Notes: a model not told the origin generated them from the sequence alone. A stretch of DNA of 64,000 bases from an uncultured Erysipelotrichaceae bacterium (GCA_902794075.1 CADBGE010000001.1:276477-340476), one strand, 5' to 3'. Numbered from the stretch's first letter, positions 8,024 to 64,000 are shown. A program made the numbers and translations.

Positions 8024-8629
8024 TTAATCAATAATTTTTACAAGTTCACTGCTAGAACAATTTTTTTGTCCTTTAACTAGCCAATGACAATATTCTGGTG
8101 AAGTTGACTGATAATAGCCATCATCAAAATACTCCCAATATTTTCCATCCACACTTGTCAATACTCTATATTTAAAATCAGGCCCATCGCCTTCAAGAAC
8201 AATATCACCAGCCTTAATAAATTTACTTGATATTTCAAAATCAGAAAAACGTCTACCGTCAAATGTAGTATCATCAACAAGACTTAATAGACGTTCTACA
8301 TCTTTATCAGTATGTCCATCCCAATGTGGAGCCTTATATAATTCATCACAATGGAAATAATCCCAATACTTATTTTCGTAATGATATGTATATGTTCCAT
8401 CCGGCGTATCGATGCCTACGATAAACCAACCACCGTCAAAACATAAGTTTCCGTCTTCATGACGATATGATTTCCAACTAATATCAGGATAAGTTTTTAC
8501 TAAAGCAGCAAATAATACCATTCGTTGAAAATATAATGAATCATATGTATGGAAACCATCAGACAATTCACCAATATCATTAATTTTGTCAATTTGAGAC
8601 AAAATATATTCTTTATCTTTTTCTTTCAT
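8024..8629 (-). CDS. hypothetical protein
   Basis: 201-aa ORF. The N-terminus MKEKDKEYIL only weakly resembles the shared leader described in the findings. Confidence 0.55.
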   Translation of the reverse strand: MKEKDKEYILSQIDKINDIGELSDGFHTYDSLYFQRMVLFAALVKTYPDISWKSYRHEDGNLCFDGGWFIVGIDTPDGTYTYHYENKYWDYFHCDELYKAPHWDGHTDKDVERLLSLVDDTTFDGRRFSDFEISSKFIKAGDIVLEGDGPDFKYRVLTSVDGKYWEYFDDGYYQSTSPEYCHWLVKGQKNCSSSELVKIID

Positions 8630-9459: not shown

Positions 9460-10206
9460 TTATTTTTTAACTGTATCAATCAATATATCTTTATATGCCT
9501 TACAATAATTAATCATATCTTCTTCATCATCAAATTTCTTATATGTTAATTCATAATCATTAAAGAAATTAGTTGGAATAAGTGAAAAAAGAGTAAAGTT
9601 ACAGAAGAAATCATTCTTTGTGTCATTAGAATCATATAGTTCAACCACAGGAACATTTACCTGATTCTTACCCATAAAAGTTTTCTTATTTATAATGTTA
9701 TGACGAGAACCGATAACTCCCCATGCATCATTAACATCATCATAAACAACTATCCGTCCACCATTAAAACCATAACCTTTACTTGCATATTCACATTCTA
9801 CAATATTATTAATAGACATATCAAATCTATATCCAGACTTCTCTATAAAAGTCATAGCATCAATATCATATATTGTACCATTTTCTTTAAATACTGAACT
9901 CATTCTAGAATTTTGATATGAATCTTCTTTATACGACAAAGATTTACCCCACTCTTCATCAGTAAACTTTAAAGGTGACAAAATTCTAAAATTTACAGCA
10001 TTACTAAATATGCGAGCAGCAATAGGTGCAGACATTCCACTATGTCCTTGCGTATCAAACATACTAAGTAAATCTATAATATCTTGTTCTTTACCACCTT
10101 CTCTACGATAATGTTCAATTGCATTACTGTCTTTAGCATACTTGCGGATAATTGGCAAAGCAAAACGATATGTTAACCAATTAATTGTTTTTTTCTTTAT
10201 GTTCAT
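9460..10206 (-). CDS. hypothetical protein
   Basis: 248-aa ORF. No family recognised. Confidence 0.55.
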   Translation of the reverse strand: MNIKKKTINWLTYRFALPIIRKYAKDSNAIEHYRREGGKEQDIIDLLSMFDTQGHSGMSAPIAARIFSNAVNFRILSPLKFTDEEWGKSLSYKEDSYQNSRMSSVFKENGTIYDIDAMTFIEKSGYRFDMSINNIVECEYASKGYGFNGGRIVVYDDVNDAWGVIGSRHNIINKKTFMGKNQVNVPVVELYDSNDTKNDFFCNFTLFSLIPTNFFNDYELTYKKFDDEEDMINYCKAYKDILIDTVKK

Positions 10207-27444: not shown

Positions 27445-28653
27445 CTAAACTTTTATTCTAATTGGGTTGTACACGAACCTCATATCTGCTGGTACTATAT
27501 TTTGTACATCACAGTTACATTTTTCTATTCCTAAACGCATAATATTGAATGATCCATTTATGTCAGCATTAATGTATAAACCATTTGCAGTTCTAAACAT
27601 TCCTCTATTTATGCGTTTTCCTTTATATGTTTCATGCTTACAAATCTTTTCATTATCAATAAAACTACACTTAGATGTATATGCTTCATTCACTATAATC
27701 ATATGTATTCCTGCTAACTTACACTTGTAATTAAGCATTTGTATTAACATATTGTATGGCACAGAAACAAAGTTTTGATTGTTTGTCTTACCTATGTTGA
27801 TACTGTCTTTCCAACCATTGTTCTTACCTACAAATAATGTATTAAGATTGTTTGTTTTCATATATTCAACTATAGAATAAGATATCTTATGCATATAATC
27901 TTTTATCTTGTTATTTCTACGATTAGTAAGTCTTTGTATTCTTTTGCTTGTATGTTTATGTTTTGTCAACTTAGATTGAAGCTGTCCCTTTCTTTTGTTA
28001 TAGAAATGATTAATTGATTTTAATTTTCTTCCATCATATATCATTGACTGACATACATTTGATGTCAATGTAGCTAAATTGTTTAATCCAAGATCTATAC
28101 TTCCAAATCTATTATTGTTTTCTTTTAACTCATATTCTTTATTATATATTATTTCTATTATGATATGATTTCCTCTTGGTATTATTCTAACTTGCTGTAT
28201 GTTTTCTTTGTCTGTTTTTAGTTCAATCCTATTGTGTTTGTCTATCTTTAATGTCAATATATTGTTCTTTATTTTAAAACATTGGTTAGTGTATGTTACT
28301 ATATTTCTACCTTTTTCTTTGTCTTTATAATGCGGCAATCTAACTTTCTTGCCTTTTATCTTAACTGATTTTATTGCTTTATAAAAAGACTTATATTGTT
28401 TGTCTATCTGCATTAATATCTGTTGTGCGCATTGTGTGTAAGGCAGAGAACGATAATCTATTTGGTTTTCAGATGATAACCGTTTATTCAAATCATAATA
28501 TGAAAGATGTGTTTTTGTTTCTTTGTAATGCTGTCTTATCTGATATAGTGCATAGTTATATAGATTCTTAGACTTTAAGCACAACTGATCTAACATAGAA
28601 AAATATCTATGTCTATTGTTTATAATTACCTGTTGTGTCAATTGAATTTTCAT
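27445..28653 (-). CDS. tnpB: TnpB (OrfB) RNA-guided endonuclease-family protein
   Basis: 402 aa. RuvC-I GSIDLGLNNLATL (D), RuvC-II IIVNEAYTSKCS (E), RuvC-III INADINGSFNI (D). The zinc-finger region has only two Cys (KCSF...ICKHE). Confidence 0.85.
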   Translation of the reverse strand: MKIQLTQQVIINNRHRYFSMLDQLCLKSKNLYNYALYQIRQHYKETKTHLSYYDLNKRLSSENQIDYRSLPYTQCAQQILMQIDKQYKSFYKAIKSVKIKGKKVRLPHYKDKEKGRNIVTYTNQCFKIKNNILTLKIDKHNRIELKTDKENIQQVRIIPRGNHIIIEIIYNKEYELKENNNRFGSIDLGLNNLATLTSNVCQSMIYDGRKLKSINHFYNKRKGQLQSKLTKHKHTSKRIQRLTNRRNNKIKDYMHKISYSIVEYMKTNNLNTLFVGKNNGWKDSINIGKTNNQNFVSVPYNMLIQMLNYKCKLAGIHMIIVNEAYTSKCSFIDNEKICKHETYKGKRINRGMFRTANGLYINADINGSFNIMRLGIEKCNCDVQNIVPADMRFVYNPIRIKV

Positions 28654-29252
28654 ATGTCAACTTCCAAGTTTTCTTCTATCAACTTAAGTTTATTTTTTCT
28701 ACGTTTAGAATACATTTTCATAGCAAAACAATGTATAAGAGATATAATGTCTTCAAATATTTCTTTATCATCATTGTCATTATTTTCTAATATGTCATTC
28801 ATAACTATTATATCACAATTAAATGATTTAAATAACTCTTTCCACATATTGAAACTAACTCTACTAAACCTATCTTTATTTGATATTAACACTGTTTTTA
28901 TTTTATGTTCTATCACATCAAATAACATATCTTTAAAGTTTTGTCTGTCAAAAGACACACCTGATGCAATGTCTTTATATATTTTGTTCACTACAAAACC
29001 ATTGCTATTTGCAAATAATTTTAATGTTTCTATCTGATTTTCTAAATCTTTTTTCTGTTTAGAAGTAGACACTCTTGCATATATGACAATATCACGTATT
29101 GGGCTAATACCAGCTATAGCATAAACATCATCATCGTTATAAATCAAATGTTTATCATTTATTTTTGTTGTTCGTATCTTTCCTTGTTTGGCATATTTAT
29201 ATATAGTATTTCTATGCAAACGTGTTAATTTATGTACATCTTTATATTCCAA
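28650..29252 (-). CDS. tnpA: IS607-type serine recombinase transposase TnpA
   Basis: 200 aa. N-terminal MerR-like HTH (LTRLHRNTIYKYAKQGKI) followed by the resolvase catalytic block VIYARVSTSKQKKDLENQ. Confidence 0.85.
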   Translation of the reverse strand: MEYKDVHKLTRLHRNTIYKYAKQGKIRTTKINDKHLIYNDDDVYAIAGISPIRDIVIYARVSTSKQKKDLENQIETLKLFANSNGFVVNKIYKDIASGVSFDRQNFKDMLFDVIEHKIKTVLISNKDRFSRVSFNMWKELFKSFNCDIIVMNDILENNDNDDKEIFEDIISLIHCFAMKMYSKRRKNKLKLIEENLEVDI

Positions 29253-36981: not shown

Positions 36982-38607
36982 ATGAAGAACATTGATGAAT
37001 ATATAATAGAACAAGAATTTAATGACAACTTTTTAATAGAAGAAGGTTTTCTTTCATGGATAGCCAAACTTGGAAAAAAATTCTGGAATTGGTTAACAAG
37101 TAAAAATTATAAGTCAGATGATTTGGATTGGTCTCTTTATAATGACAAAGGAAAACGTCTAAAAATGAAGTGGTATGATATAAGCAATGATCATTTGACA
37201 TCAATGTTCAACGGAAAGAATGGATTAGAAGAACAGTTCATTAATATTATAAAAACATTAAAAAAATACAACAAGTTCAGTAAACATATACAAGGACGAA
37301 ACGCGATAAACATAAATAAGATTCCTCCTATAGTAATATTATATACAACTAATAAAAAATTCATATATTCATTACTTAAAGGTTCATATAAAAATGTATA
37401 TAACAAATATGAGAACAAGATTCATAACATTCAAAATCCTGTAATGATATTGTCAATAGAAATAGCAAGAGATAATGACAATAGTATAGAAAGAATTTGG
37501 GATGATTATATATATTCAGAAATAACAGATGCATTCTTGGATTCATATGATATTGTTTTCTTTGATGTAAACAACATAAATAAACTAAAAAAATATTTAA
37601 AGGATGAATGGGGAATTTCTAATTCGTTTCCTATTGCTGATGGAATAGAAGAATGGGAAGACATTAGTGATGAGATCGAAGATGAAGAAGATGACTCAAC
37701 TGAAGAAGATGATTCAGCAAAAGAAGATGATTCAACAAAAGAAGATGATTCAAACAATGGTTCAGAAAAAGCTCCAGACCCAGATGATGGTTCAGTAAAA
37801 ATTCATTCAGAAGATGATAAAAATATTAATCACACAATAGTTTTCTTTGATGAGAAAAAAGAAAAGGTAGCAGAATCAAACATTATAATATATAATAAAA
37901 AAACAAAGGATATATTTGAAGATATACTTGAAGGCATGCCTATAGATAACAAAGGATACTATAATCTATTGATGACTGATTTAGAAATTTCTGATAAATA
38001 TAGTGAATCAGACTATAGAAATGTAATATCTGATTTTATAATACCAGTAATATTTGAAAAGTGCACACATATTATAAAAGAAATAAATGAAAAAGAATCA
38101 ACAGCAAAGCAAATAAAAGTATATATAAAATTAGATGATGAAAAATATGAAAAGCACATAAAGGCATTAAGTGCACTTTCAAAGTCAAAGAAGATAAAAG
38201 AATCTATAAAAAAGATATTTATAATAATAGGCTCAACTACAGAAAATTTAATGGCCGGAGAAAAGAAAGCCGAAAAGACAGAAATAAAAGAATCACTTGA
38301 CATTGACAATTTATTTTGGATGCTTGACACATGGTTCACAAATAATGAACAGGAACGTTCAACATTTATGAGCATTATTGACAATTGTATAATAAAAAGA
38401 ACATATACTAAGAATGATCTTGCTAAAATATGTGATAATATAAACTTTGAAATAAGACCGTTTATCAATTTTCTATGTAAAGACGCTGTTGTATCAGACA
38501 ATAATTCTGAAGACTATAGCATTGATTATTATTATGAACTAAAAAAAGTAATTGATGCACTAATATCTAATAAAGCAACAAATAATAAATATGTTCGTTT
38601 TTCATAA
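36982..38607 (+). CDS. hypothetical protein with acidic low-complexity repeat and CTS-like leader
   Basis: 541 aa, the only plus-strand gene in this stretch. The N-terminus is MKNIDEYIIE. The central repeat is EEDDSTEEDDSAKEDDSTKEDDS. Confidence 0.6.
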   Translation: MKNIDEYIIEQEFNDNFLIEEGFLSWIAKLGKKFWNWLTSKNYKSDDLDWSLYNDKGKRLKMKWYDISNDHLTSMFNGKNGLEEQFINIIKTLKKYNKFSKHIQGRNAININKIPPIVILYTTNKKFIYSLLKGSYKNVYNKYENKIHNIQNPVMILSIEIARDNDNSIERIWDDYIYSEITDAFLDSYDIVFFDVNNINKLKKYLKDEWGISNSFPIADGIEEWEDISDEIEDEEDDSTEEDDSAKEDDSTKEDDSNNGSEKAPDPDDGSVKIHSEDDKNINHTIVFFDEKKEKVAESNIIIYNKKTKDIFEDILEGMPIDNKGYYNLLMTDLEISDKYSESDYRNVISDFIIPVIFEKCTHIIKEINEKESTAKQIKVYIKLDDEKYEKHIKALSALSKSKKIKESIKKIFIIIGSTTENLMAGEKKAEKTEIKESLDIDNLFWMLDTWFTNNEQERSTFMSIIDNCIIKRTYTKNDLAKICDNINFEIRPFINFLCKDAVVSDNNSEDYSIDYYYELKKVIDALISNKATNNKYVRFS

Positions 38608-38824: not shown

Positions 38825-40129
38825 TTATGCTATTCTTTTCTGTTTTATATTGTCAATCATGCAAAAATTGTTCTTTTCAGGAAATAATGTATTGTCATCC
38901 TTTGCATTCCAGTTTAACAGAATTCTTACCGCCTCGGACACCATATATTCAGCAGTCTTCACAGGAACATTTTGACCAAGCTGATATGAAATTTTTCCAG
39001 CATGAATATCATCAACAGCAAGTTCAAAATCATGAGGCATCCCCATTAGTTCCATATTCTCTCTAAGATTTATTAATCTATTTTCGTATGGATGAATAGT
39101 ATTTTCAATGTTACGGAACATTACAGCAGGACATGTATCAATTGACATCTTAGGTGTGAACATAAAGAATCCAAGTCCATGCTTATATTTATATTCAACG
39201 TCATTAATCTTTCTATGCCAAGATTCCTTTTGTTTATCTGTTATGTCATAATCATCAGTAAACTTTCTAAATCTATCAAACATATCCTGAGCACATAGTT
39301 CTGACACAAGATCTTTCTTATGCATCTTTTCTCGCCAATTTTCACCATATTCGGCTAGGAAGAAATCCATTAATATCTTAGCATAATACCTCCATGGAGA
39401 AATTTCATACTTAAGCCCCTTAGGAATTGCTTTGAAGTAGTCAGTCGCAGAAATATGCTCATTCACAAAGTTTATGATACGAGGTTCATCATTTCCTTCA
39501 GTTATCTTAAAGAAGAACACAAATGTACGAGGCCGCCTTTGACAGTTCTTATGAAGCTGAGTATCTGTTTTAAAATATGTAACCGTATAACCATACTTTT
39601 TGGCAAGTTCGTTAAACCAATTACGAAGTTGTTCTCCCTTTATTGTAAATAACGCAGGAGCATTCTCAAATATATATACACGTGGCTTAAGTTCAGATAG
39701 TGTATATTCTGCGATGAACTTCATATTACAGTTCTTAATATTCTTCGTTTCCTCGCCAAATGTCGACACAGTGCTAAGTCCTGAACAGATAGGCACAGCA
39801 ACAACTAGGTCAAGGTCTTTATTATATATATTAACTGAATTTCCTGATTCATCTACAATTTCTTGTTTCATATTGTCATCACCATCAAACATCTGCCTTG
39901 TGGCAAACTGATAATATGCAGGCATACGATTATGTTTCTTTAGATAATTTGTAAGATGACGTTCATTGCCACATCCAGTTATCTCATTATTCTTATTCTT
40001 CTTTATGTCATTGAGCCCCTTGAAGCTCAATATGAATTCTGCAGGATGTCCTATTGCATTCTCTGCACCTAAGTACATTCCACCAGTAAGTGGCTGTATT
40101 GCTGCCCATCTAATTTCTTCTTTAGTCAT
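38825..40129 (-). CDS. DNA (cytosine-5)-methyltransferase
   Basis: 434 aa with ordered C5-MTase motifs: PICSGLS (motif IV PC), FENAPAL (motif VI ENV-like), QRRPRTFVFF (motif VIII QxRxR), GQNVPV (motif X GNxVP). Confidence 0.8.
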   Translation of the reverse strand: MTKEEIRWAAIQPLTGGMYLGAENAIGHPAEFILSFKGLNDIKKNKNNEITGCGNERHLTNYLKKHNRMPAYYQFATRQMFDGDDNMKQEIVDESGNSVNIYNKDLDLVVAVPICSGLSTVSTFGEETKNIKNCNMKFIAEYTLSELKPRVYIFENAPALFTIKGEQLRNWFNELAKKYGYTVTYFKTDTQLHKNCQRRPRTFVFFFKITEGNDEPRIINFVNEHISATDYFKAIPKGLKYEISPWRYYAKILMDFFLAEYGENWREKMHKKDLVSELCAQDMFDRFRKFTDDYDITDKQKESWHRKINDVEYKYKHGLGFFMFTPKMSIDTCPAVMFRNIENTIHPYENRLINLRENMELMGMPHDFELAVDDIHAGKISYQLGQNVPVKTAEYMVSEAVRILLNWNAKDDNTLFPEKNNFCMIDNIKQKRIA

Positions 40130-40164: not shown

Positions 40165-40887
40165 TCATTTTATGTAATTATAATGTCTATCATAAACATG
40201 CAAAGAACCGCAGTTATATTCAATGTATGGTTTATGTTCACTCATTGGAATACCGTTTGTAATTAAATCATCATATAACTTATCATATACATATTTATGC
40301 CAATGTAAATCATTGTTAAAACCAAACACCGCATCGCATGATCTTTGATATACTATATATTTCAATTCATATACTTCTATATTGTTATCAGGATGCTGTA
40401 TTTCATTTAAGAAACAATGAACATAATGCGTACACATAAAATCCATCATTCCATTTTTATTCCAATCAGTCTGCATCTGAGGTCTTGTGTATATCATAAC
40501 GGCCTGTCTTGTTAAATTATTTCTTAATAATGACTTAAGACAATATCCATACTGATTTCCGTTTTCTTCAGAAAAAATACACCATCCATAATTAGAATTA
40601 ATATACCCGTTAGGTGTACTTACAAGTTTCCATATCTTTGGTGTCTTTCCAGGAATGTCATTTACATTCAAAGATTCTGATTCATACCATTCTATTTCTT
40701 TATTTGCATAATCATAATTTGGTTCACGAATTATATAATCCTTGTCACAGATAAAATGAATGTTCTGCAGTTCAACTGTGTTTCCTCTAAATTCATTATT
40801 CTTATATTTGTTTTTAAATAATTTTAAAATGTCTTCCGTATTATAAGTATCATTGTTCATAATCATAAAGTTAAAAAATAAAGTCAT
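40165..40887 (-). CDS. deoxycytidylate (dCMP) hydroxymethylase, T4 gp42-like (thymidylate synthase superfamily)
   Basis: 240 aa. The blocks EIEWYESESLNVNDIPGKTPKIW, INSNYGW, AVMIYTRPQMQ, MDFMCTHYV (catalytic Cys), QRSCDAVFGFNND and GSLHVYDRHY match my recollection of T4 gp42 block by block. An Asp (NND) sits where thymidylate synthases carry the uracil-specifying Asn. The true start may be an internal Met at about 40866. Confidence 0.75.
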   Translation of the reverse strand: MTLFFNFMIMNNDTYNTEDILKLFKNKYKNNEFRGNTVELQNIHFICDKDYIIREPNYDYANKEIEWYESESLNVNDIPGKTPKIWKLVSTPNGYINSNYGWCIFSEENGNQYGYCLKSLLRNNLTRQAVMIYTRPQMQTDWNKNGMMDFMCTHYVHCFLNEIQHPDNNIEVYELKYIVYQRSCDAVFGFNNDLHWHKYVYDKLYDDLITNGIPMSEHKPYIEYNCGSLHVYDRHYNYIK

Positions 40888-46219: not shown

Positions 46220-46889
46220 TTGCGGAAATTATGATAAAAACTCTTTTATTTGTTGAATAATTTCTTTTGAATTATTGCAACAATATTCCCAATCTATTCT
46301 TAATTCTTTCCAGCCGTTCTTTTTTAATAAATTATCCTTTCTTTTATCACAATCTTGTTGATATTTTGAAATTTTATGAAATCTCCCATCCATTTCTATA
46401 ACTTTTTTATCATCAACCCAAGCAAAATCTAAAGAAAATGAATAAAACGGATATTCATGAATATAATTTGTATTAAGATTTTCATTTTTAATAACATTCA
46501 TTAACCATTGTTCTGGATATGATATATTATTTTTTCCTCTTAAATGTGCCCATGTTGGTGCAAGTCCTAATTTATGTTTTTCTTTCATTATTTGTGAAAG
46601 ATTATTTTTTTCTGCATCAGATAATTTGTGACCTTTAAAAATTTTTCTATTGGGATTACATTTACAAAATGTTTCATGTCTTTTATAACATTGATATGAC
46701 ATTAACATTTCTCGTCCGCAATATTGACAAACAAAATTATTTTTTATTTTATTATCTAATCGTTCGGATCTATTAGGATTAAGCTTACAATATTTTTCAT
46801 GTAATCTGCATCCATTTAATTTTTTATATGTTTTATTACAAAACTTACAATTAAACATTTTTATTTTATTTTTTATTTATTGCGGAAAT
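46220..46889 (-). mobile_element. free-standing homing-endonuclease cassette bounded by 10-bp direct repeats
   Basis: ttgcggaaat occurs at 46220-46229 and 46880-46889, flanking ORF 46229-46858. The right copy is the 3' end of the Ser-like tRNA. The left copy is an orphan abutting the 5' end of the CAT tRNA-like gene. A third copy at 46046-46055 ends the TAA tRNA-like gene. Confidence 0.55.
46229..46858 (-). CDS. homing endonuclease-like protein (zinc knuckles plus DUF559/Vsr-like PD-(D/E)xK domain)
   Basis: 209 aa. Two CxxC...H...C knuckles (CKFCNKTYKKLNGCRLHEKYC and CQYCGREMLMSYQCYKRHETFC). The C-terminal FSLDFAWVDDKKVIEMDGRFH...W.ELRI is typical of DUF559-type endonuclease domains. Confidence 0.65.
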   Translation of the reverse strand: MFNCKFCNKTYKKLNGCRLHEKYCKLNPNRSERLDNKIKNNFVCQYCGREMLMSYQCYKRHETFCKCNPNRKIFKGHKLSDAEKNNLSQIMKEKHKLGLAPTWAHLRGKNNISYPEQWLMNVIKNENLNTNYIHEYPFYSFSLDFAWVDDKKVIEMDGRFHKISKYQQDCDKRKDNLLKKNGWKELRIDWEYCCNNSKEIIQQIKEFLS

Positions 46890-47486: not shown

Positions 47487-47688
47487 TATTAATTATATAA
47501 TAAAAAAGAAACCCACATTTTCATGCAGGTTTCTGAAGTATAAATGCAAATATTGTGTAATAAAATATTCTATGATAAAATTATACTTCCATATCACCTG
47601 CGTTAATGCCTTTAAAGCACCAACTACAAAAACTAATATGTCGCATAATTTTGTTCATTTTTCTATTATTTATTAGTATAATATATTA

Positions 47689-49152: not shown

Positions 49153-50184
49153 TTAAATGTCACCACTTAACTTTTTTACAGTGTATTCGATTGTTCTTTT
49201 TAGTCCTTCATTAATGTCAACTTCAGGTGTCCAATTCAAAAGTTCATTGGCTCTAGTATTGTCACATTGTGAATACTTATTTACCTCATGATCAAGAATA
49301 TTTCTAGATATCTTATATTCTCCTTCATATAGTTCAGGATATTTATCCCAATACTTTGAACTATCATTATATACCGCATCAATATTCGTATTCATAATAT
49401 TTTTTGCAATGTCATATAATTCTCTTACGCTGTATGAAGTATTTGAACTACAGTTTATTACATTAAATCCACTCAATGTTCGTGCACGATAAACAAGTTC
49501 AAGAAGATCATCTATATAAATATAATCACGGGCCTGTTTACCGTCACTGAAGAAGTTTGGAGTTCTGTCATAATATAGTTCACGAATCATATATCCAACA
49601 AACGGAGGCTGCTTTCTAAGACAATCAATATGAGGTCCATATACATTTGCAAATCTTATGCATGTTACATTCATTCCGTAAGTATCGCAAAATGACTGCG
49701 CAAATCGTTCAGCACAATACTTCGTATTTGGATATATTAGTGTAGGTAGATTATATTCATTGATGTCATCTTCTTTAGTTGGGAAGTCAACGACATTTTC
49801 ATACATTGCATTTGTTGATGCTTGTACAACACTATAAACATTATGACGTCTGCACAACTCAAGAACTTTCACAAGTCCATTTACATTTACATCAACTGCT
49901 TCTGCTGGATTACATTGACAATCAGGAAGCGGAGCAATTCCAGCAATATTGAACACACATTCTATTCTATTGTCTTCAAATAATTGTTCAAACTCTTTAC
50001 TGCGAATATCCATTACATATAGAATCTCATTTAAGTCAACGTCATCAAAAATTAGATTATCTTCATGACCATAACTCATATTGTCAACAAGAATAAGATC
50101 ATATCCAAGCTTATATAACTTATATGCAAGTTGTCCACCAATAAAACCTGCAGCTCCAGTAATTAAAATTATTTCTCTGTCCAT
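49153..50184 (-). CDS. NAD-dependent nucleotide-sugar epimerase/dehydratase (extended SDR)
   Basis: 343 aa with Rossmann ILITGAAGFIGGQL (TGxxGxxG) and catalytic YPNTKYCAE (YxxxK). Confidence 0.75.
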   Translation of the reverse strand: MDREIILITGAAGFIGGQLAYKLYKLGYDLILVDNMSYGHEDNLIFDDVDLNEILYVMDIRSKEFEQLFEDNRIECVFNIAGIAPLPDCQCNPAEAVDVNVNGLVKVLELCRRHNVYSVVQASTNAMYENVVDFPTKEDDINEYNLPTLIYPNTKYCAERFAQSFCDTYGMNVTCIRFANVYGPHIDCLRKQPPFVGYMIRELYYDRTPNFFSDGKQARDYIYIDDLLELVYRARTLSGFNVINCSSNTSYSVRELYDIAKNIMNTNIDAVYNDSSKYWDKYPELYEGEYKISRNILDHEVNKYSQCDNTRANELLNWTPEVDINEGLKRTIEYTVKKLSGDI

Positions 50185-50211
50185 TTTTTATAATATATAT
50201 TAAAGATTATT

Positions 50212-50892
50212 TCATTCACTAAATTTCAGTACTTGTTCTGTTCTATACATTTCGCCATTTCTTAGTATATCATAATATATGACATTTGAAATATATAGCT
50301 TATCATATTCTTTTACGCATTCACAAAGGTCAATGAACTTATTTATGTCATTAAAATAATATCCGCCTGCACAAAATTCAGAACTAATCACACGTTTCTC
50401 AATTATGTTTAACACAACATCATCAGATGTAGTTGATACATAACTTTTATTAGAAGGATTTATTTCAATTACATCTTCAAGTTTATATGTATATACTGTA
50501 TTTTCATTATTTAGCTCGGCAATATTAAAACTTGCATCGGCATCTTTGATGAACAATCCATATCTACTGTATGGTATCTGATTTACTGTCTGAAGAATAG
50601 TATCAACAACATTTCTTGTTTCATTAACAACAATGACATGCGTCTTATCAACAAAACTTTCATTATTAAGTTGAATTTCAAGCATATTCTTAATATGATA
50701 TATGTCATCAATCTTCTTATTTACTACAATATATATCTTATTGAAATCATCCAATGGAAGATCTAACATATTGTTTATGATATTCATCCGTCCAAAATCA
50801 TTTAATTTAAAAATCTCTGGAATGAATTGTTCATATATTTCATTATATGCAGCAGCAGGAATTACAAGTATTTTATTATTGTTCATAGTCAA
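50212..50892 (-). CDS. nucleotide-diphospho-sugar transferase-fold protein lacking the NTP-binding glycine loop
   Basis: 226 aa, collinear with the N-terminal domain of 51792-53177 (VVDTI vs AIETI, KDADAS vs LDCDLV, AGGYYF vs AGVYGF, YISNVIY vs YVSYIYN). It has LVIPAAAYNE instead of GGLGTR. Confidence 0.45.
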   Translation of the reverse strand: MTMNNNKILVIPAAAYNEIYEQFIPEIFKLNDFGRMNIINNMLDLPLDDFNKIYIVVNKKIDDIYHIKNMLEIQLNNESFVDKTHVIVVNETRNVVDTILQTVNQIPYSRYGLFIKDADASFNIAELNNENTVYTYKLEDVIEINPSNKSYVSTTSDDVVLNIIEKRVISSEFCAGGYYFNDINKFIDLCECVKEYDKLYISNVIYYDILRNGEMYRTEQVLKFSE

Positions 50893-50897
50893 AAAGA

Positions 50898-51788
50898 TTA
50901 AAATTTTTCATTAAGAATGTTATTAATTGTGTCAATTAAGTATATAGTAACAGAATCCTTTTTAGCATATTGTACTATTCGTAAGAAGTTCATAAGTTGG
51001 AATATTGCATATGAATCTTTGTAAAATGAATACTTACTAAAGTTTATGTCAAGTTGTTCATCAATGTATTTGCAAATCATATCATAACGAGTCTTATCAT
51101 ATTCCTTGCTATTATACATTAATGTACTCCACTTATATTTAGTATCCTGTCTAAGTTTCACAATGTCGATAATCGGAGATTCAATGAAAGAATCTAAAAA
51201 ATCAATCAAAGCAAATTCATTATCCCTAAATATGATGTTTGAGAATGTCAGATCGCCATGACACTTCCCAACATAAAAGTTTTCAAACTTCATAACAGGC
51301 TTAAATATTTCATCACATCGTTCAATGATTTTCATTATTGATGAATAATACGGAGAATCATTTTTATATATATTCATCATATTCTTTTTAACTGACATCC
51401 ATTTCTTATAAAGTTCATCAGTTTCATATTCAGCAACGCATATACTTGATTCAATTTCATTACGAACATATTCGCAGATAGTTGATATAAATTTATCAAT
51501 AATCATCTTATCTGCATACTCAAAGAATGAAACAAAATTTTTTCCATATACATATTCCATTATGCCATGATATTCGCCAGGCCATGTTTCATCAGAATTT
51601 ATAATCTTTGGCACAACAATATTCTTTGTTATGTTTGTTTTTGCCGCAGATAACTGTTTATCAAACTGCGCCTTAAGTCTTGGAATATATTTTTCATTCT
51701 TTGTGTACTTATCAATAACAAGAATGTCTTTATTCTTTTTAATGTCTATGTAACATCCTGAATGTCCTTCTACTTCAATTTTTTTCAT
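50898..51788 (-). CDS. APH/choline-kinase-family small-molecule kinase
   Basis: 296 aa. GKCHGDLTFSNIIF...ALIDFLD is Brenner's HGDxxxxN catalytic loop plus the D-F-x-D metal-binding motif of the aminoglycoside / choline / anomeric sugar kinase family. Confidence 0.7.
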   Translation of the reverse strand: MKKIEVEGHSGCYIDIKKNKDILVIDKYTKNEKYIPRLKAQFDKQLSAAKTNITKNIVVPKIINSDETWPGEYHGIMEYVYGKNFVSFFEYADKMIIDKFISTICEYVRNEIESSICVAEYETDELYKKWMSVKKNMMNIYKNDSPYYSSIMKIIERCDEIFKPVMKFENFYVGKCHGDLTFSNIIFRDNEFALIDFLDSFIESPIIDIVKLRQDTKYKWSTLMYNSKEYDKTRYDMICKYIDEQLDINFSKYSFYKDSYAIFQLMNFLRIVQYAKKDSVTIYLIDTINNILNEKF

Positions 51789-51791
51789 AAT

Positions 51792-53177
51792 TTATTCTAA
51801 TGATATTTGGTTGTTCTTTATAATTTTTTGAAATTCGTCCTTATCTATAAACTTTGAAAGTCCATTTATACTGTTTACATTTATAATGTTCTTTACTTCA
51901 GCTTTATATGCTGCAAGGAATCCTACATCACTATCTTCATATACATATATATTGTTTGATGATATGAAAGGATATTGCATTATTATTTTTTGATATACCT
52001 CAGAATTTGGTTTTCCATTTTTAACATTATCACCAGTTATAATATAATCAAATAAATCATCAATTTCAAAATATTTTAATACATTATCAACATTTTTCTT
52101 TGATGCAGTTGTCGCAAGACATACAATATTTCCATTTTGTTTTGCATGATATAGATATGAATATAGATTTTTATTAATAGATATTTTGTCAAAGTATTTC
52201 TTATATACACGAGATTTTATTTTCTTTACTTCATTTAGTTTAGATTCATCAAGCTTGAGTGCATTAAGAAGTTCATTGATTCGTAATCCAAAATTACTAT
52301 AATAATTATCTTCAGTTAATTCGTAATCATATATCTTTTTAAATGTTTCCTTATATGCTAAATAATTTGCGTTTTTAGTATCAATAAGTGTTCCATCAAG
52401 ATCAGATATATATAATTTCTTAAACTTATTATTAGACGATATGAAATTCATAATCTCGTCACTAGTTCCAATTGAAGTATATTCATCAAGATGTGACAAT
52501 ATAATTTTCGCACCATCATTAATCATTAGATTATATATATAAGATACATAATATTCGTTTGCTTCAAAGTCAGAAACGTTTTTGTCAAGAATCATCTTTG
52601 CATATTTCTTAAACGACTTTCCATTAGAAAATCCATACACACCAGCCAACGCATGATTAGAAATTGGACATTTTTCTGCAGTACGTTTGACTAAATTATT
52701 TTCATTTATTTCAGCATAACTATACTTGTGAAGATTAGAATCAAATGACAATAGAAATCCATCAATGGCTTCATCAGCATCAATTCGTTCAATTATATCA
52801 TATAGATCATTACTTTTAAATACAAGATCACAATCAAGAACTACACATATATCATCATCATCAATAAATGATTCAGCACACATTATAGTCTCAATTGCGC
52901 CTTTAGTTAAATAATCTATTTGAACTAAATTAAATTCATCAGCAAAATTCCAACCAATCTGATTTACTTTTTTTATATAAAAATCGTTCATAATCTCATT
53001 ACGAACAATCATTGTTAACTTTGTTCTATAACTATTCTTAATTTCATTAAATCCACTAAGAGCATATTCAAATAAATATTTCTCAAACAAATTAATAAAA
53101 GGTTTAGGAGAATTATACATATCGGATGTTCGCGTTCCTAAACCGCCCATTGGCATTATAATATGTAAATTTTTCAT
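51792..53177 (-). CDS. bifunctional sugar-phosphate nucleotidyltransferase / HAD-superfamily hydrolase or mutase
   Basis: 461 aa. N-terminal IIMPMGGLGTR (GxGTR nucleotidyltransferase loop). C-terminal half carries ISDLDGTLIDT (HAD motif I DxDxT) and YEDSDVGFLAA (HAD motif IV). Confidence 0.7.
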   Translation of the reverse strand: MKNLHIIMPMGGLGTRTSDMYNSPKPFINLFEKYLFEYALSGFNEIKNSYRTKLTMIVRNEIMNDFYIKKVNQIGWNFADEFNLVQIDYLTKGAIETIMCAESFIDDDDICVVLDCDLVFKSNDLYDIIERIDADEAIDGFLLSFDSNLHKYSYAEINENNLVKRTAEKCPISNHALAGVYGFSNGKSFKKYAKMILDKNVSDFEANEYYVSYIYNLMINDGAKIILSHLDEYTSIGTSDEIMNFISSNNKFKKLYISDLDGTLIDTKNANYLAYKETFKKIYDYELTEDNYYSNFGLRINELLNALKLDESKLNEVKKIKSRVYKKYFDKISINKNLYSYLYHAKQNGNIVCLATTASKKNVDNVLKYFEIDDLFDYIITGDNVKNGKPNSEVYQKIIMQYPFISSNNIYVYEDSDVGFLAAYKAEVKNIINVNSINGLSKFIDKDEFQKIIKNNQISLE

Positions 53178-53282: not shown

Positions 53283-54893
53283 ATGAGAACATTTGATGAG
53301 TTCTTAAAAAATCATTATAAATCTAAAAATGTAAGCATTCTTAGTGAGGATGATTCACAAAAAAATAGTGATAATATAAATATAGATAATAATGTATCTG
53401 AAGAAATTGTTGTAGCAAATGATGTAAAGGATACTGAAAATATAGTTGATAAAATGGATAAAAAATCTGGATATTTTTTCAACAATATTATATTTTTCAC
53501 AAATAGTAGAGATCCCTCAAAAAATAAGACGTTAAAAAATCTTGAAGATGCTGTAAAAGGAACTGATATTACTATATATACGTTTGTTGCTGAAGAAGTT
53601 GATTATAAGGCAACAGAAAAAAGTATTAGTATAAAAGACAGTAAAACAAAGTTAAAGATCGATAAACAGTCAAACATTGATACTATTGTTATTGTTCGTC
53701 TTGGAGCACAAGATTCAGAACTTTGTGTTGAATGCATAAAAGAATTACAACAGTGGGGATTATTTGTTCTTAATCCAATTCAGAATGCAAAGAAAGCTTC
53801 TAATAAATATTCATCAGCTGTTCTTATGGAAAGATATGGAATTCCACAGCCAAAGTTTACATTGCTTACGAAGAATGACATTGAAAAAGGTGATGAAAGT
53901 CTTTCAAAAAAATTAAAGAATATTTATTCGGACATTGGAGATGATGAGAAAGCCGATAAGAAAAAGGAATATGTTGTAAAATTGTTAAATGGTCATGGTG
54001 GTACAGGTGTATTTATGTGCAACGGAAAGACAATATTAAGTATCCTTCAAGCTATGTTTGCTGTTGATGAAGAACTTGAACTTCTCTGTCAGAAGAAAGA
54101 AGAAGCTGACGGAGGAGACATACGGGTTCATGTTCTTACAATGAGAACAAAGCAGATGATACTTGCTCAGATGAAGCGAGTTAAGATATCTGGAGATTTC
54201 CGTTCAAATGTTTCTTTAGGTGCAACCGCAGAAAAAGTTGAATTAACTAAAGAACAAGAAGATATTGCATTGAAGGTTGCAAAGATTTCTGGTATGCCGT
54301 GGTGTGCAGTTGACATAATGCCATTGGTTAAAGATTCTAATCCAGAAATTGGCGATAATGTTGTACTTGAATATAATTCATCCCCAGGTACAGAAGGAAT
54401 ATCTGATGTAATTGATGAAAACTTTGTTAAGATTCTTCTTGATAATATAAATGACATTAATGAACTTGTTCTTTATCCAAAATCTATTGGATACATAGAG
54501 AATATTACATTTAAGTTCAATGATGATGATGCACCGGTTACAATGGAAGCAAAACTTGATACAGGTAACGGTGCATATGCTTCAACAATAGGTTGTGAAA
54601 AGGTTGAAGTTAAAGATGATGAGGTTGTTGCCACACTTAATGACAAGGAATATCATTTTAAGAAACATGGATCATCAAATCCTCGAGTAGGTCAGGTAAC
54701 AGAATCAAGAACTACAGTTATTGTTCCTGAGATTCAGATTGGAACTCGTAAATTGCTTGATGTTGAATTTGCTCTTGTTGACAATAGAAAGAAGTCAACA
54801 AAGATACTACTTAATAGAGATATATTATCTAAGATGGCTTACATGATTAACCCAGCTCAGAAAAAAACATTAGATGAAAATAAAAAAATATGA
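53283..54893 (+). CDS. RimK-type ATP-grasp ligase fused to a C-terminal retropepsin-like (Zn_protease/DUF785-like) domain, with CTS-like leader
   Basis: 536 aa. LNGHGGTGVF, GGDIRVHVL, SGDFRSNVSLGATAE and CAVDIM...LEYNSSPG parallel E. coli RimK blocks as I recall them. C-terminal MEAKLDTGNGAYASTIG resembles the AKxDTGA signature of the RimK-associated protease-like domain. The N-terminus is MRTFDEFLKN. Confidence 0.7.
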   Translation: MRTFDEFLKNHYKSKNVSILSEDDSQKNSDNINIDNNVSEEIVVANDVKDTENIVDKMDKKSGYFFNNIIFFTNSRDPSKNKTLKNLEDAVKGTDITIYTFVAEEVDYKATEKSISIKDSKTKLKIDKQSNIDTIVIVRLGAQDSELCVECIKELQQWGLFVLNPIQNAKKASNKYSSAVLMERYGIPQPKFTLLTKNDIEKGDESLSKKLKNIYSDIGDDEKADKKKEYVVKLLNGHGGTGVFMCNGKTILSILQAMFAVDEELELLCQKKEEADGGDIRVHVLTMRTKQMILAQMKRVKISGDFRSNVSLGATAEKVELTKEQEDIALKVAKISGMPWCAVDIMPLVKDSNPEIGDNVVLEYNSSPGTEGISDVIDENFVKILLDNINDINELVLYPKSIGYIENITFKFNDDDAPVTMEAKLDTGNGAYASTIGCEKVEVKDDEVVATLNDKEYHFKKHGSSNPRVGQVTESRTTVIVPEIQIGTRKLLDVEFALVDNRKKSTKILLNRDILSKMAYMINPAQKKTLDENKKI

Positions 54894-62627: not shown

Positions 62628-64000
62628 TTATCCACATCTTGACCAACCACAGTCAATGCAATGTATGCAACCATTCTCACGAATAAGCTTACCACCACAG
62701 TCTGGACATTTTTCTCCTTCAAGAACTTCATCCTTTTCATACTTACGAAGTATACGAACCATTGCTGATGTAAAGCTTGTGATATTGTCATCAACTTTCT
62801 GAGCAGTCTTAATAATATATTTTAGATTTGCTCCAGTACGCATTAGCATTGATGAATATAATGCTGTCGCAAGTTCCTCGGTTGTAAGCTTAGAACTGAT
62901 GTTCTCAATAACTATATTTTCAGATTCAAACTTATATACTGACTTCTTTATCTTAGTAATAGTTCCTTTATGCTGAGGTATTATTTTATTATTTTCAGAT
63001 CTATATACAAATATTTCATACGGCTTATTCTTATATAATCCAACCATTACATAGAATACTTCACCCTTAACCTTTGTTGAATAAAAATCTGCAGGAAGTG
63101 TCTTAGGACGTTTAGGAGCGTTCACATAACTTTCAAATTTGTCATCTTCCTTTTTCTGTTCTTTCTTTATCATAATACCTTCACGAGAACCGTCACGATA
63201 TACTGTGATGCCCTTTAGTCCGTTTCTCCAAGCTTCCATGTAAATGTTACTTACTTCTTCCTCAGTCACATCATTTGGAAGATTGACAGTAGAACTGATT
63301 GAATGTGTAATAAGATACTTCTGAACAATTCCTTGAACTTCAACACGTTTTTGCCAATCAATGTCCTGAGCACATGAACCATACCATGGTGACTGCTTAT
63401 AGATCTCTTCCCATTCCTTTTCTGTGAGTTCATCAAACTTTGAGAGCAGTTCAGGCATATTTGCTTCAGCCCATTTCTTTAGCTGTGGATGAACAACGAC
63501 AAATTCTGTAAAGTTAATGCCAAGCTTGTCAGTGTAGTCAATCCTATCTTCTGATGTAACGCATTTGCGACGACGAACATAATATGGCATAAATACTGGC
63601 TCAATTCCTGATGAAGTCTGAGTTAACATTGAGATTGTTCCTGTAGGTCCTGCTGTTGTGAATGAAATATTACGACGACCATTGTTCTTCATCTGCTCGT
63701 ATCGTCCAGGATATTCACTGTATATGAATCTAAACCATTCATTGAGATATGGCGTACCCCATTCATCTTTTATATTATTGTTTGTTTCAAGTTCTTTATC
63801 ATAATCTGGAAAAGTTCCACGTTCAAGAGCCATGTCAGTCTGACAGTCAAGAACAGCACTCATCATAAGCTTACAAACCTTCTCAATGAATTCATTTGAT
63901 TCTTTAGTACAAAACTTATATCCCATTGCTGCACACATATCTGACATTGCAGTAAATTCTAATCCGCAACGACGACCATTTTTGCCTTTTTCTAAAATTC
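62628..64000 (-). CDS. nrdJ: ribonucleotide reductase large subunit, class II (NrdJ-like), N-terminus outside the window
   Basis: TTAGPTGTISMLTQTSSGIEPVF is the conserved RNR active-site finger region. The C-terminal CPDCGGKL...CIHCIDCGWSRCG zinc-ribbon/redox tail is typical of NrdJ. The frame stays open upstream of the track Met at 63947 to the window edge (...GRRCGLEFTAMSDM). Confidence 0.7.
   Translation of the reverse strand, partial: ILEKGKNGRRCGLEFTAMSDMCAAMGYKFCTKESNEFIEKVCKLMMSAVLDCQTDMALERGTFPDYDKELETNNNIKDEWGTPYLNEWFRFIYSEYPGRYEQMKNNGRRNISFTTAGPTGTISMLTQTSSGIEPVFMPYYVRRRKCVTSEDRIDYTDKLGINFTEFVVVHPQLKKWAEANMPELLSKFDELTEKEWEEIYKQSPWYGSCAQDIDWQKRVEVQGIVQKYLITHSISSTVNLPNDVTEEEVSNIYMEAWRNGLKGITVYRDGSREGIMIKKEQKKEDDKFESYVNAPKRPKTLPADFYSTKVKGEVFYVMVGLYKNKPYEIFVYRSENNKIIPQHKGTITKIKKSVYKFESENIVIENISSKLTTEELATALYSSMLMRTGANLKYIIKTAQKVDDNITSFTSAMVRILRKYEKDEVLEGEKCPDCGGKLIRENGCIHCIDCGWSRCG

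Follow-up and report, generated by a model that had tools for sequence, protein, structure and literature searches.

A four-gene kinase, nucleotidyltransferase and epimerase module of a jumbo phage as a candidate source of a sugar donor for DNA glycosylation

Why should a phage carry side by side a small-molecule kinase, a nucleotidyltransferase joined to a phosphatase-like domain and a sugar epimerase-like enzyme, and to which acceptor would the product of such genes be directed? The question is raised by a 64-kb stretch of DNA filed under an uncultured Erysipelotrichaceae bacterium (GCA_902794075.1), referred to below as the window, and in particular by four adjacent genes at 49153-53177, referred to as the module. 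The window is AT-rich (26-34% GC) and matches a 400,026-bp metagenomic contig with tail-fibre, baseplate, endolysin and ribonucleotide-reductase genes; therefore, it is assigned to a jumbo phage of about 400 kb. With slightly better than even confidence, we consider the module to encode, by itself, all the steps that lead from a sugar phosphate to a nucleotide-activated sugar, which is most likely the donor for glycosylating 5-hydroxymethylcytosine (hmC) in the phage DNA. Genes 1-4 are named in the order of transcription (NT, nucleotidyltransferase; APH, aminoglycoside phosphotransferase; SDR, short-chain dehydrogenase/reductase; aa, amino acids).

51792-53177, minus strand: gene 1, NT-HAD protein of 461 aa, an NT domain (residues 1-252) fused to a HAD-IA domain (residues 253-461)
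52422-53177, minus strand: NT domain of gene 1, with intact GLGTR loop, Lys25 and DCD motif
51792-52421, minus strand: HAD-IA domain of gene 1, beta-phosphoglucomutase-like, with motifs DLDGT, TTAS, GKP and EDSDVG
50898-51788, minus strand: gene 2, small-molecule kinase of the APH/choline-kinase fold, 296 aa, with GHSGC, K27, HGDLTFSN and IDFLD
50212-50892, minus strand: gene 3, NT-like protein, 226 aa with a TTG as start codon or 224 aa with the ATG at 50886, an NT-fold paralogue without the NTP-binding G-loop and Lys
49153-50184, minus strand: gene 4, extended SDR of 343 aa, NDP-sugar 4-epimerase-like, with TGAAGFIG (9-16), STNAMY (123-128) and YPNTK (151-155)

The enzymes of the module

The four minus-strand open reading frames (ORFs) follow one another in the order NT-HAD, kinase, NT-like, SDR, with intergenic gaps of 3, about 5-11 and 27 nt. 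This agrees with the original prediction, which had described four co-oriented, tightly packed genes, and every motif named in it was present when the translations were read again. The profile and structure searches that it had called for gave statistically strong assignments to the NT, HAD and Epimerase families, an APH fold for the kinase and an NT fold for the NT-like protein. The gene set is kept in five places from independent metagenome assemblies, and many homologues of 55-98% identity were found. A megablast search of the module against 50,697 phage records gave zero matches. In NCBIfam searches of the phage proteins and of those of the related bacterial cassette described below, nothing attained a curated equivalog cut-off, so the substrate is not transferable by annotation.

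The NT domain carries the GLGTR loop at residues 12-16 and PKP at 24-26, and P9, G12, G14, R16, K25, D115 and D117 are invariant among 18 homologues. Its best matches are phrog_3980 (3.3e-43) and the PDB entry 4evw (1.5e-11). The G-x-G-x-R loop, the lysine, the acidic residues and the PDB match point to a sugar-1-phosphate nucleotidyltransferase of the RmlA/GalU/LicC type. The similarity to TIGR01208 (rmlA_long, 2.8e-10) falls under the cut-off of that model, and the domain represents a divergent subfamily, because the threshold of Pfam PF00483 is passed by some homologues only. The HAD domain, with DLDGT at 259-263, GKP at 388-390 and EDSDVG at 414-419 of the 461-aa protein, was matched by Pfam HAD_2 (1.9e-26) and, as the best PDB entry, by the sugar-phosphate phosphatase 3kbb (5e-15). 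With all four motifs in place, it is predicted to belong to HAD subfamily IA. The best NCBIfam model, TIGR02009 of the beta-phosphoglucomutase (beta-PGM) subfamily (1.2e-19), was reached with 71 bits against a cut-off of 153, and the domain is therefore not a curated beta-PGM. It would act as a phosphatase in the route proposed here, and may alternatively be a mutase.

In the kinase, K27 (the beta3 lysine), HGDLTFSN (177-184) and IDFLD (195-199, with DFLD at 196-199) are invariant among 23 homologues. The Pfam cut-offs of EcKL (2.3e-5, 24.3 bits) and APH (5.6e-5, 23.5 bits) are both barely exceeded. The AlphaFold model (pLDDT 91.8) shows an APH fold, the top PDB fold matches being APH(3') and APH(2'') with TM scores of 0.45-0.56 and about 15% identity, and the nearest structural matches in a search against viral models include NT-kinase fusion proteins. 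Model and motifs thus agree with a predicted small-molecule kinase of the APH, choline-kinase and EcKL fold, whose family amounts to 1288 cluster representatives in a whole-database search. We propose that it is an anomeric sugar(-phosphate) kinase. An antibiotic kinase, the outcome that the original prediction had regarded as damaging to its own proposal, was considered and rejected: aminoglycoside kinases do head the PDB list, with likeness at the level of the fold only and the low identity given above, and the best NCBIfam APH model reached 18 bits against a cut-off of 620. The context opposes such an identity as well, as the kinase family is found in polysaccharide or DNA-modification loci at more than 130 loci. 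A kinase phosphorylating hmC within DNA, like the 5-HMUDK enzymes, was likewise rejected, because the kinase orthologues sit in bacterial capsule loci.

The third gene encodes an unusual component. At the position of the loop its product reads PAAAYNEIYEQFIPEIF, with no Gly-x-Gly, Arg or Lys, and PAAAY replaces the G-loop. KDAD (116-119), KSY, NIIEKRVIS and FCAGGYYF are retained, which bears out the earlier description of a paralogue that lacks the NTP loop and keeps an acidic DAD triad. Zero matches were obtained in Pfam, NCBIfam or PHROG, and the AlphaFold model (pLDDT 90.6) adopts a sugar-nucleotidyltransferase fold (4evw, E 1.5e-11, TM 0.71). Besides 4evw, its best fold matches are inositol-1-phosphate cytidylyltransferase (IPCT), LicC, UGPases and RmlA, with PntC also near. 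The suggestion that this protein might be a GT-A-like transferase was not borne out: all 50 PDB fold matches listed are nucleotidyltransferases, with no glycosyltransferase among them, and the DxD motif is common to the active NT paralogue. KDAD is read as a feature of the NT family, because it aligns with LDCD of that paralogue. Lacking the NTP loop and the lysine, the protein is predicted to have an NT fold and is not expected to be an active nucleotidyltransferase.

The SDR was matched by Pfam Epimerase (2.2e-43), and its best PDB entry is the UDP-glucose 4-epimerase of T. maritima (4zrm, 2.6e-39), compared with 7.8e-11 for 3sxp of the HldD type. It remained under every NCBIfam equivalog cut-off, including the sub-threshold heptose epimerase model TIGR02197 (7.6e-23). 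The motifs of an extended SDR of the NDP-sugar epimerase/dehydratase group, which had been predicted, are present. Unlike 4,6-dehydratases, the protein has no Asp-Glu dyad after the Ser/Thr, and it is closest to UDP-hexose 4-epimerases.

Related loci in jumbo phages and bacteria

The use of the product can be approached through relatives of the module. Four of them (L102, L103, L104 and L119) lie on IMG/VR jumbo-phage contigs of 236-435 kb with 25-27% GC. A fifth, L022, lies on a 39.8-kb contig with 28% GC from goat ileum (GenBank JAFRDD010000173.1), labelled 'MAG: Clostridia bacterium RGIG2387', which is almost certainly a jumbo-phage fragment mis-binned in a bacterial metagenome-assembled genome (MAG). 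In all five loci, the orthologous genes stand in a single same-strand cluster with DNA-glycosylation genes, in the order dNMP-kinase-like, ThyA-like, NT, HAD, SDR, kinase, loop-less NT-like, 435-aa glycosyltransferase, TAGT and second 435-aa glycosyltransferase. The order of the final genes differs between contigs: L104 and L022 have a single 435-aa glycosyltransferase, and TAGT precedes the kinase in L102 and L022. The dNMP-kinase-like gene matches phrog_761 thymidylate kinase (1.4e-10), and the TAGT matches PF20691 (1.5e-22) and phrog_842, beta-glucosyl-HMC-alpha-glucosyltransferase (3.2e-20). For the family profile of the 435-aa glycosyltransferases, the best PDB entry is T4 DNA beta-glucosyltransferase (BGT; 5e-4, a weak and specific match), and one of these proteins passes the threshold of Pfam Glyco_trans_1_2. 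L022 additionally encodes a dCMP deaminase. The two or three transferases suggest that a di- or trisaccharide is built in these relatives.

The SDR proteins of the relatives are 62-66% identical to that of the window in four of the five loci (62% in L022; the gene is absent in L102), and their ThyA-like proteins are 52-56% identical to a ThyA homologue of the window (56% in L022):

40165-40887, minus strand: ThyA homologue of the dCMP-hydroxymethylase type (Pfam Thymidylat_synt 1.8e-7; phrog_160 3.2e-32)

Published criteria for ThyA homologues connect N177D with a dCMP substrate, L143D/E with a hydroxymethyl product and D169N with 5-hydroxycytosine (PMC13326640). Aligned with E. coli ThyA, the homologue of the window keeps the catalytic C146 and D169 and has L143 changed to D and N177 changed to D; on these criteria it is assigned to the dCMP-hydroxymethylase type. 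The homologues of L022 and of a further relative, L011, keep Asp at 169 in the same manner. It is therefore probable, at the level of sequence, that the ThyA homologue makes the acceptor base hmC, and the earlier expectation that this phage carries hmC is upheld to the same degree.

In the window, 9 kb with endolysin, DUF559 endonuclease and tail-fibre genes separate the SDR gene from the ThyA-like gene, whereas in the relatives the ThyA gene adjoins the module. Within the clade of the window, L154 keeps the four-gene order with 52-57% identity, and L155 and L011 keep NT-HAD, kinase and NT-like. L011 has the same NT-HAD fusion, and a glycosyltransferase of the 435-aa family and a ThyA-like gene directly follow its module. 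An ancestral DNA-modification locus appears to have been broken up in the window. Use of the product in DNA glycosylation is favoured because the orthologues in the relatives cluster with ThyA-like, TAGT, T4-BGT-like glycosyltransferase and dNMP-kinase-like genes and, in L022, with the dCMP deaminase.

Two further observations concern these loci. Between the kinase and the NT-like gene of L102 (L102:10855-12504) stands an extra 549-aa protein that matches phrog_3980 (6.5e-11), the PHROG of the NT domain in the window; this is possibly another enzyme with an NT domain and would then point to two donor sugars in that phage. L022 has, besides its ThyA-like gene, a weaker ThyA-like ORF of 193 aa, and a homing-endonuclease-like ORF (phrog_3339) separates the two.

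The module also has a counterpart in bacteria. A kinase search yielded a sample of 80 bacterial loci, one per species and mostly Bacteroidales, which includes Bacteroides xylanisolvens, Segatella copri, Palleniella, Muribaculaceae, Alistipes, Akkermansia, Helicobacter bilis and Lentisphaerae. A full collinear cassette of NT, HAD-IA, kinase and NT-like genes is present in about 65 of the 80, with identities to the phage proteins of 35-43% for NT, 30-43% for HAD, 39-46% for the kinase and 29-37% for the NT-like protein. It is set in Wzx/Wzy polysaccharide loci with Wzz, flippase, polymerase, GT2/GT4, pyruvyl transferase, acyltransferase and EpsG/Wzy genes. Collinearity, the loop-less fourth protein and the reciprocal similarity of all four proteins indicate that the phage module is a form of the cassette, of which B. 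xylanisolvens XB1A, Segatella copri, Palleniella muris and Akkermansia offer examples. Gene order, loss of the NTP loop in the fourth protein and grouping of the kinases are shared, whereas in the bacteria NT and HAD are separate genes and an SDR orthologue adjoins in few loci only. A literature search on the cassette in Bacteroides capsule loci found no paper describing it. Clustering of the flanks, in search of a dedicated fifth gene, returned polysaccharide genes of a generic kind and two protein families, each of about 400 aa (38 and 11 loci), which are unrelated to the phage glycosyltransferases.

The bacterial loci are informative about the NT-like protein. In 79 of the 80, its gene lies downstream of the kinase gene, and except in 4 of these it follows immediately; the 80th locus ends at a contig edge. 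In 11 Bacteroidales species, kinase and loop-less NT-like protein are fused into one chain of 524-553 aa, with the loop-less part C-terminal to the kinase, and these fusions are independent evidence that the two proteins act together. The form of the NT-like protein tracks its partners. Where separate NT and HAD genes are present, it is loop-less and 225-240 aa long, as in all bacterial cassette copies with a separate NT. Where they are absent, it has about 355 aa, with the loop intact (PxAGxSxRF...PKW) and with a HAD-type domain at the C-terminus that is matched best by the T4-PNKP-like phosphatase 4xrp (3.5e-4). The loop-less protein is probably a non-catalytic partner of the kinase, and is best read as a degenerate copy of an original NT-HAD protein that was retained in this role.

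The trio of kinase, NT and HAD was met in four architectures. Besides the separate genes of bacteria and the NT-HAD fusions of the phage clade of the window, a kinase with an NT-HAD fusion of about 350 aa was seen at about 40 loci of environmental phages and also in some bacteria, and NT-HAD-kinase triple fusions of 776-801 aa with an EcKL-type kinase occur on giant-virus-like contigs. Genes like those of eukaryotic viruses (ubiquitin hydrolase, papain-like protease, ERCC4) lie on the latter contigs, so that the trio is apparently also present in nucleocytoplasmic large DNA viruses. Environmental phages in IMG/VR mostly have the two-gene form, often followed by an SDR. In eleven marine or freshwater contigs, kinase, 350-aa NT-HAD and SDR form a triad in a gene order matching kinase, NT-like and SDR of the window, with SDRs 34-38% identical; this three-gene form is widespread among viruses. 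The invariant core is thus kinase, nucleotidyltransferase and HAD. The domain combination, which had appeared unusual at first, is not so: it was met in about 65 bacterial species and at about 50 viral loci of IMG/VR, besides the giant-virus triple fusions. A tblastn search with NT-HAD against phages also returned cyanophage clusters of an NT, a hypothetical protein and a HAD; they were rejected as orthologous context, the hypothetical proteins being 12-22% identical to the NT-like protein and poorly aligned.

In a rough neighbour-joining tree of the kinases, the clade of the window (with L155, L154 and L011), the clade of L022, L102-L104 and L119, and the Bacteroidales cassette group together, away from the two-gene forms that environmental phages and other bacteria have. 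This topology fits an exchange between gut jumbo phages and Bacteroidales, the direction of which is not given by the tree, and hints at a Bacteroidales host.

The proposed route and the acceptor of the sugar

The following route is proposed. The kinase would phosphorylate the anomeric C1 of a distally phosphorylated sugar from central metabolism, or of a free sugar, with the loop-less NT-like protein as a non-catalytic partner that binds the sugar phosphate. The HAD-IA domain would then remove the distal phosphate. In an alternative order the phosphatase would act first and the anomeric kinase second, as in MupP/AmgK/MurU, and the product would be identical. The fused NT domain would join the sugar-1-phosphate with an NTP to give an NDP-sugar, a step that both motifs and fold support. 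The SDR would epimerise this NDP-sugar, probably at C4. Finally, to judge from the relatives, DNA glycosyltransferases encoded elsewhere in the genome of about 400 kb would attach the sugar to hmC, which the ThyA-type dCMP hydroxymethylase of the phage would provide; DNA hypermodified in this way would resist host nucleases. The analysis shows the folds, the catalytic motifs, the conserved gene set and its place within DNA-glycosylation loci of relatives; we infer in which order the steps run, which sugar and nucleotide are used, what the pseudo-nucleotidyltransferase does and which acceptor is served in the phage of the window.

The closest known system, and a precedent for a phage that makes its own donor, is that of RB69, DLP3 and HY126, which produce UDP-arabinofuranose for DNA with arabinosyl-5-hydroxycytosine (PMC13326640). 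In this Afh pathway, an isomerase yields arabinose-5-phosphate (Ara5P), AfhE, a bifunctional NT and APH-like kinase, converts Ara5P to Ara-1,5-P2 and later Ara1P to UDP-Ara, and the HAD phosphatase AfhF converts Ara-1,5-P2 to Ara1P (PMC13326640). The genes (AfhE/AfhF in the E. coli phage HY126, gp52:53 with gp51 and gp55 in RB69, gp81-83 in DLP3) have as neighbours genes for a ThyA homologue, for a nucleotide kinase and for DNA arabinosyltransferases, of which there are up to three (PMC13326640). This pathway and the module are both phage-encoded and have three matching activities and superfamilies, an APH/choline-kinase-like kinase, a GxGxR nucleotidyltransferase and a HAD protein; the module would share the Afh logic of sugar-n-phosphate, 1,n-bisphosphate, sugar-1-phosphate and NDP-sugar; and in the relatives of the window the module is accompanied by genes for a ThyA homologue, for a nucleotide kinase and for two or three DNA glycosyltransferases. 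They also differ. The fusion is NT-HAD in the window and NT-kinase in AfhE; the HAD of the window is of subfamily IA (beta-PGM-like), whereas the other is of the small GmhB/1xpj-like type; the module adds the pseudo-nucleotidyltransferase and the 4-epimerase-like SDR; and the ThyA homologue keeps D169, as in the hmC type, in contrast to the D169N of the 5-hydroxycytosine type. RB69 and DLP3 were not among the tblastn matches in the 50,697 phage records, and no similarity was found between the type-A HAD domain and RB69 gp51. Orthology to AfhE/AfhF was rejected, as the match of the kinase is marginal and those of NT and HAD are lacking; the analogy is retained. The sugar is probably not arabinofuranose, because epimerisation at C4 by the SDR would imply a pyranose and because of the differences from the Afh pathway (no isomerase, D169 kept, an extra SDR).

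Other known systems resemble parts of the module. In the pathway to ADP-L-glycero-beta-D-manno-heptose, the HldE kinase/adenylyltransferase, the HAD phosphatase GmhB and the SDR epimerase HldD cooperate, and the GDP variant employs HddA, GmhB and HddC. As in the route proposed here, a kinase, a HAD phosphatase, a nucleotidyltransferase and an SDR epimerase act in matching order via a sugar bisphosphate. Unlike the module, this pathway has a kinase of the PfkB or GHMP fold instead of APH; the window has no GmhA isomerase, its SDR is nearer to the GalE type than to HldD, and the matches are far under the family cut-offs. AmgK/MurU/MupP and LicA/LicC, the analogies drawn in the original prediction, share the pairing of an APH-fold kinase with a small GxGxR nucleotidyltransferase, and MurNAc salvage also includes the HAD-IA phosphatase MupP. 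However, sequence similarity to these is not significant, LicB/LicD partners and a peptidoglycan context are missing, and the window has an epimerase-type SDR.

T-even phages glucosylate hmC by means of the dCMP hydroxymethylase gp42, alpha- and beta-glucosyltransferases and, in T2 and T6, a TAGT-type enzyme; the donor is UDP-glucose of the host, and genes for donor synthesis are absent. The phage of the window shares with them the signature of a ThyA-type dCMP hydroxymethylase, and its relatives the TAGT and T4-BGT-like glycosyltransferases. Unlike the T-even phages, it carries a donor pathway of its own, which implies that the sugar is not supplied by the host, or in too small an amount.

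Several observations weigh against the assignment to hmC glycosylation. The hmC glycosyltransferases that the original prediction had asked for were sought in the window and about 9 kb on each side, that is, 82 kb of the genome of about 400 kb, by Pfam searches of about 45 ORFs, by phmmer with single sequences and by hmmsearch with TAGT and GT444 profiles, and neither a TAGT or T4-BGT-like protein nor any Pfam glycosyltransferase was found there. The module is surrounded by tail, baseplate and lysis genes, and those of the window, L154 and L155 adjoin neither a ThyA-like gene nor a glycosyltransferase. The SDR is absent from some relatives. The comparison with the Afh system is weakened by hhalign, in which the kinase family aligned with RB69 gp52 marginally (probability 65%, E 6e-5) and the NT with gp53 without significance (E 0.26), and by the absence of a SIS/isomerase domain, whether of an arabinose-5-phosphate or a heptose isomerase, from the ORFs scanned in the window and related loci. 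Moreover, the product is not intrinsically a donor for DNA modification, because the bacterial cassette serves capsule or O-antigen synthesis. Thus, of the first proposal made for these genes, the activated-sugar module itself stands and its first-choice use, glycosylation of hmC, is favoured by comparative genomics, whereas a glycosyltransferase was not encountered in the part of the genome that was searched.

The most serious alternative accepts the NDP-sugar and assigns it to an acceptor other than DNA, either virion proteins (tail fibres, baseplate or surface proteins with Big_2 and LRR domains) or the capsule or lipopolysaccharide of the host. In the latter case the product would feed host glycosyltransferases, and superinfecting phages could be excluded or receptors masked. 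The collinear, 30-46% identical cassette in Wzx/Wzy loci of about 65 mostly Bacteroidales species speaks for it, as does the kinase tree, which joins the phage clades with this cassette. The module is bordered by endolysin and tail-fibre genes at one end and by baseplate and adhesin-like genes at the other, no DNA glycosyltransferase is near in the 82 kb searched, and cyanophages hold related NT and HAD genes amid ordinary glycosyltransferases. Against this, the module of the window comes without any glycosyltransferase, flippase or polymerase, and the transferases adjacent to it in the relatives are all of the DNA-glycosyltransferase type (TAGT, T4-BGT-like), flanked by ThyA-like, dNMP-kinase-like and dCMP-deaminase genes. 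We regard a non-DNA acceptor as unlikely on balance, while taking it seriously.

Activation of a phospho-alcohol or another non-sugar head group, by the logic of LicA/LicC, inositol-1-phosphate or CDP-alcohols, would lead to a CDP-linked donor of a phospho-group. The sole PDB sequence match of the kinase is a choline kinase (E 0.023), a bacterial kinase homologue has a weak Choline_kinase match, and inositol-1-phosphate cytidylyltransferase, LicC and PntC are among the structural neighbours of the NT-like protein. However, the SDR, with its similarity to UDP-glucose 4-epimerase, is of the NDP-sugar epimerase type, the HAD domain is of the sugar-phosphate phosphatase or beta-phosphoglucomutase type, the transferases adjacent in the relatives are glycosyltransferases, and in the 80 bacterial loci the cassette is never accompanied by a phosphotransferase of the LicD, CDP-alcohol or Stealth type. 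This explanation is considered quite improbable. It is more improbable still that the module is a remnant, its four genes left without a role or with a generic metabolic one after the lineage lost its glycosyltransferases on the break-up of the locus: rearrangement relative to the relatives, displacement of the ThyA-like gene by 9 kb, the DUF559 endonuclease and IS607-like element in the window and the glycosyltransferases missing from 82 kb would suit such a history, but none of the four ORFs is broken and their catalytic residues are invariant, L154 has kept the order of all four genes, L155 and L011 retain three of them, and the search spans 82 kb of about 400 kb.

Neighbouring genes and wider meaning

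Two further features lie close to the module:

53283-54893, plus strand: RimK-like ATP-grasp protein, 536 aa, with a long C-terminal extension (Pfam RimK 8.9e-24), the divergent neighbour of the module
47507-47534, minus strand: terminator-like hairpin, the sole such site downstream of the module (1 found against 0.8 expected by chance, weak evidence)

The RimK-like gene occupies the same position in L102-L104 and L119 with 71-74% identity, and also adjoins the module in L011, L155 and probably L154; the contig of L022 does not extend to it. It encodes the most conserved neighbour of the module, its 71-74% comparing with 30-43% for the module enzymes in the distant jumbo-phage relatives. In Yersinia phage YerA41, known for its heavily modified DNA, the homologue bears the annotation of a structural protein; further homologues occur in Pelagibacter phage Mosig and in cyanophages. 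The RimK-like protein may stand outside the pathway. The position of the hairpin suggests, weak as this evidence is, one transcript with NT-HAD, kinase, NT-like, SDR, endolysin and a 171-aa ORF. In a promoter scan, sigma-70-like sites were fewer than in shuffled sequence.

Directly downstream of the ThyA homologue lies a gene for a 434-aa protein similar to C5-cytosine DNA methyltransferases (38825-40129, minus strand; PF00145 1.1e-14). The pairing would be odd if cytosine were fully replaced by hmC, and was not found in the relatives examined. A 541-aa protein without a family match (36982-38607, plus strand) has a domain 35-39% identical to ORFs of 108-114 aa in L102, L103 and L104, which sit there directly after the last glycosyltransferase of the DNA-modification locus. 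The DUF559/Vsr-like endonuclease with N-terminal Cys-rich repeats (46229-46858, minus strand) has the module on one side and the tail-fibre genes on the other; it is possibly a homing endonuclease tied to the rearrangement that split the module from the ThyA-like gene. The IS607-like pair (27445-29252, minus strand) consists of a serine resolvase (PF00239 1.6e-22) overlapping a TnpB-type transposase (phrog_506 2e-52). A homologue of the Thoeris inhibitor Tad3 (9460-10206, minus strand; PF25185 1.3e-23) and a nearby WDGH-domain protein (8024-8629, minus strand; PF25311 5e-39) are probable anti-defence genes. The large subunit of a class I ribonucleotide reductase (RNR; 1343 aa, with intein PF14890) was found at 62628-63947 (minus strand) of the window and at L158:5846-9877. 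In the relative L154, an anaerobic RNR gene adjoining the module is split around a GIY-YIG endonuclease ORF.

Phage pathways that make a donor sugar for DNA glycosylation are known. The module would belong to this kind, with an unusual pseudoenzyme component and an unexpected link to a widespread, uncharacterised capsule cassette. As a tentative generalisation, gut and rumen jumbo phages of about 250-430 kb may place on hmC a sugar, or an oligosaccharide of at most three units, that is new to DNA, by a kinase/HAD/NT route in which a dead nucleotidyltransferase would be the obligatory specificity or channelling partner of an APH-fold anomeric kinase; the same route would build a unit of Bacteroidales capsules. 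If the module does serve DNA glycosylation, it would constitute the second case, assembled independently of the first, of a phage making its own nucleotide sugar to hypermodify DNA, and the range of such pathways would widen from the arabinosyl-5-hydroxycytosine of T4-like phages to chemistry of the hmC type in very large phages of gut and rumen. It would also predict a new DNA modification, with a bearing on restriction evasion and on the sequencing and engineering of uncultured phages. The recurring pairing of a kinase with a pseudo-nucleotidyltransferase, including the fusions of the two, offers a case in which the idea of a pseudoenzyme partner in sugar activation can be tested, and the comparison opens a way to the function of a four-gene cassette that dozens of abundant gut Bacteroidales, among them Segatella copri and Bacteroides xylanisolvens, carry in their polysaccharide loci.

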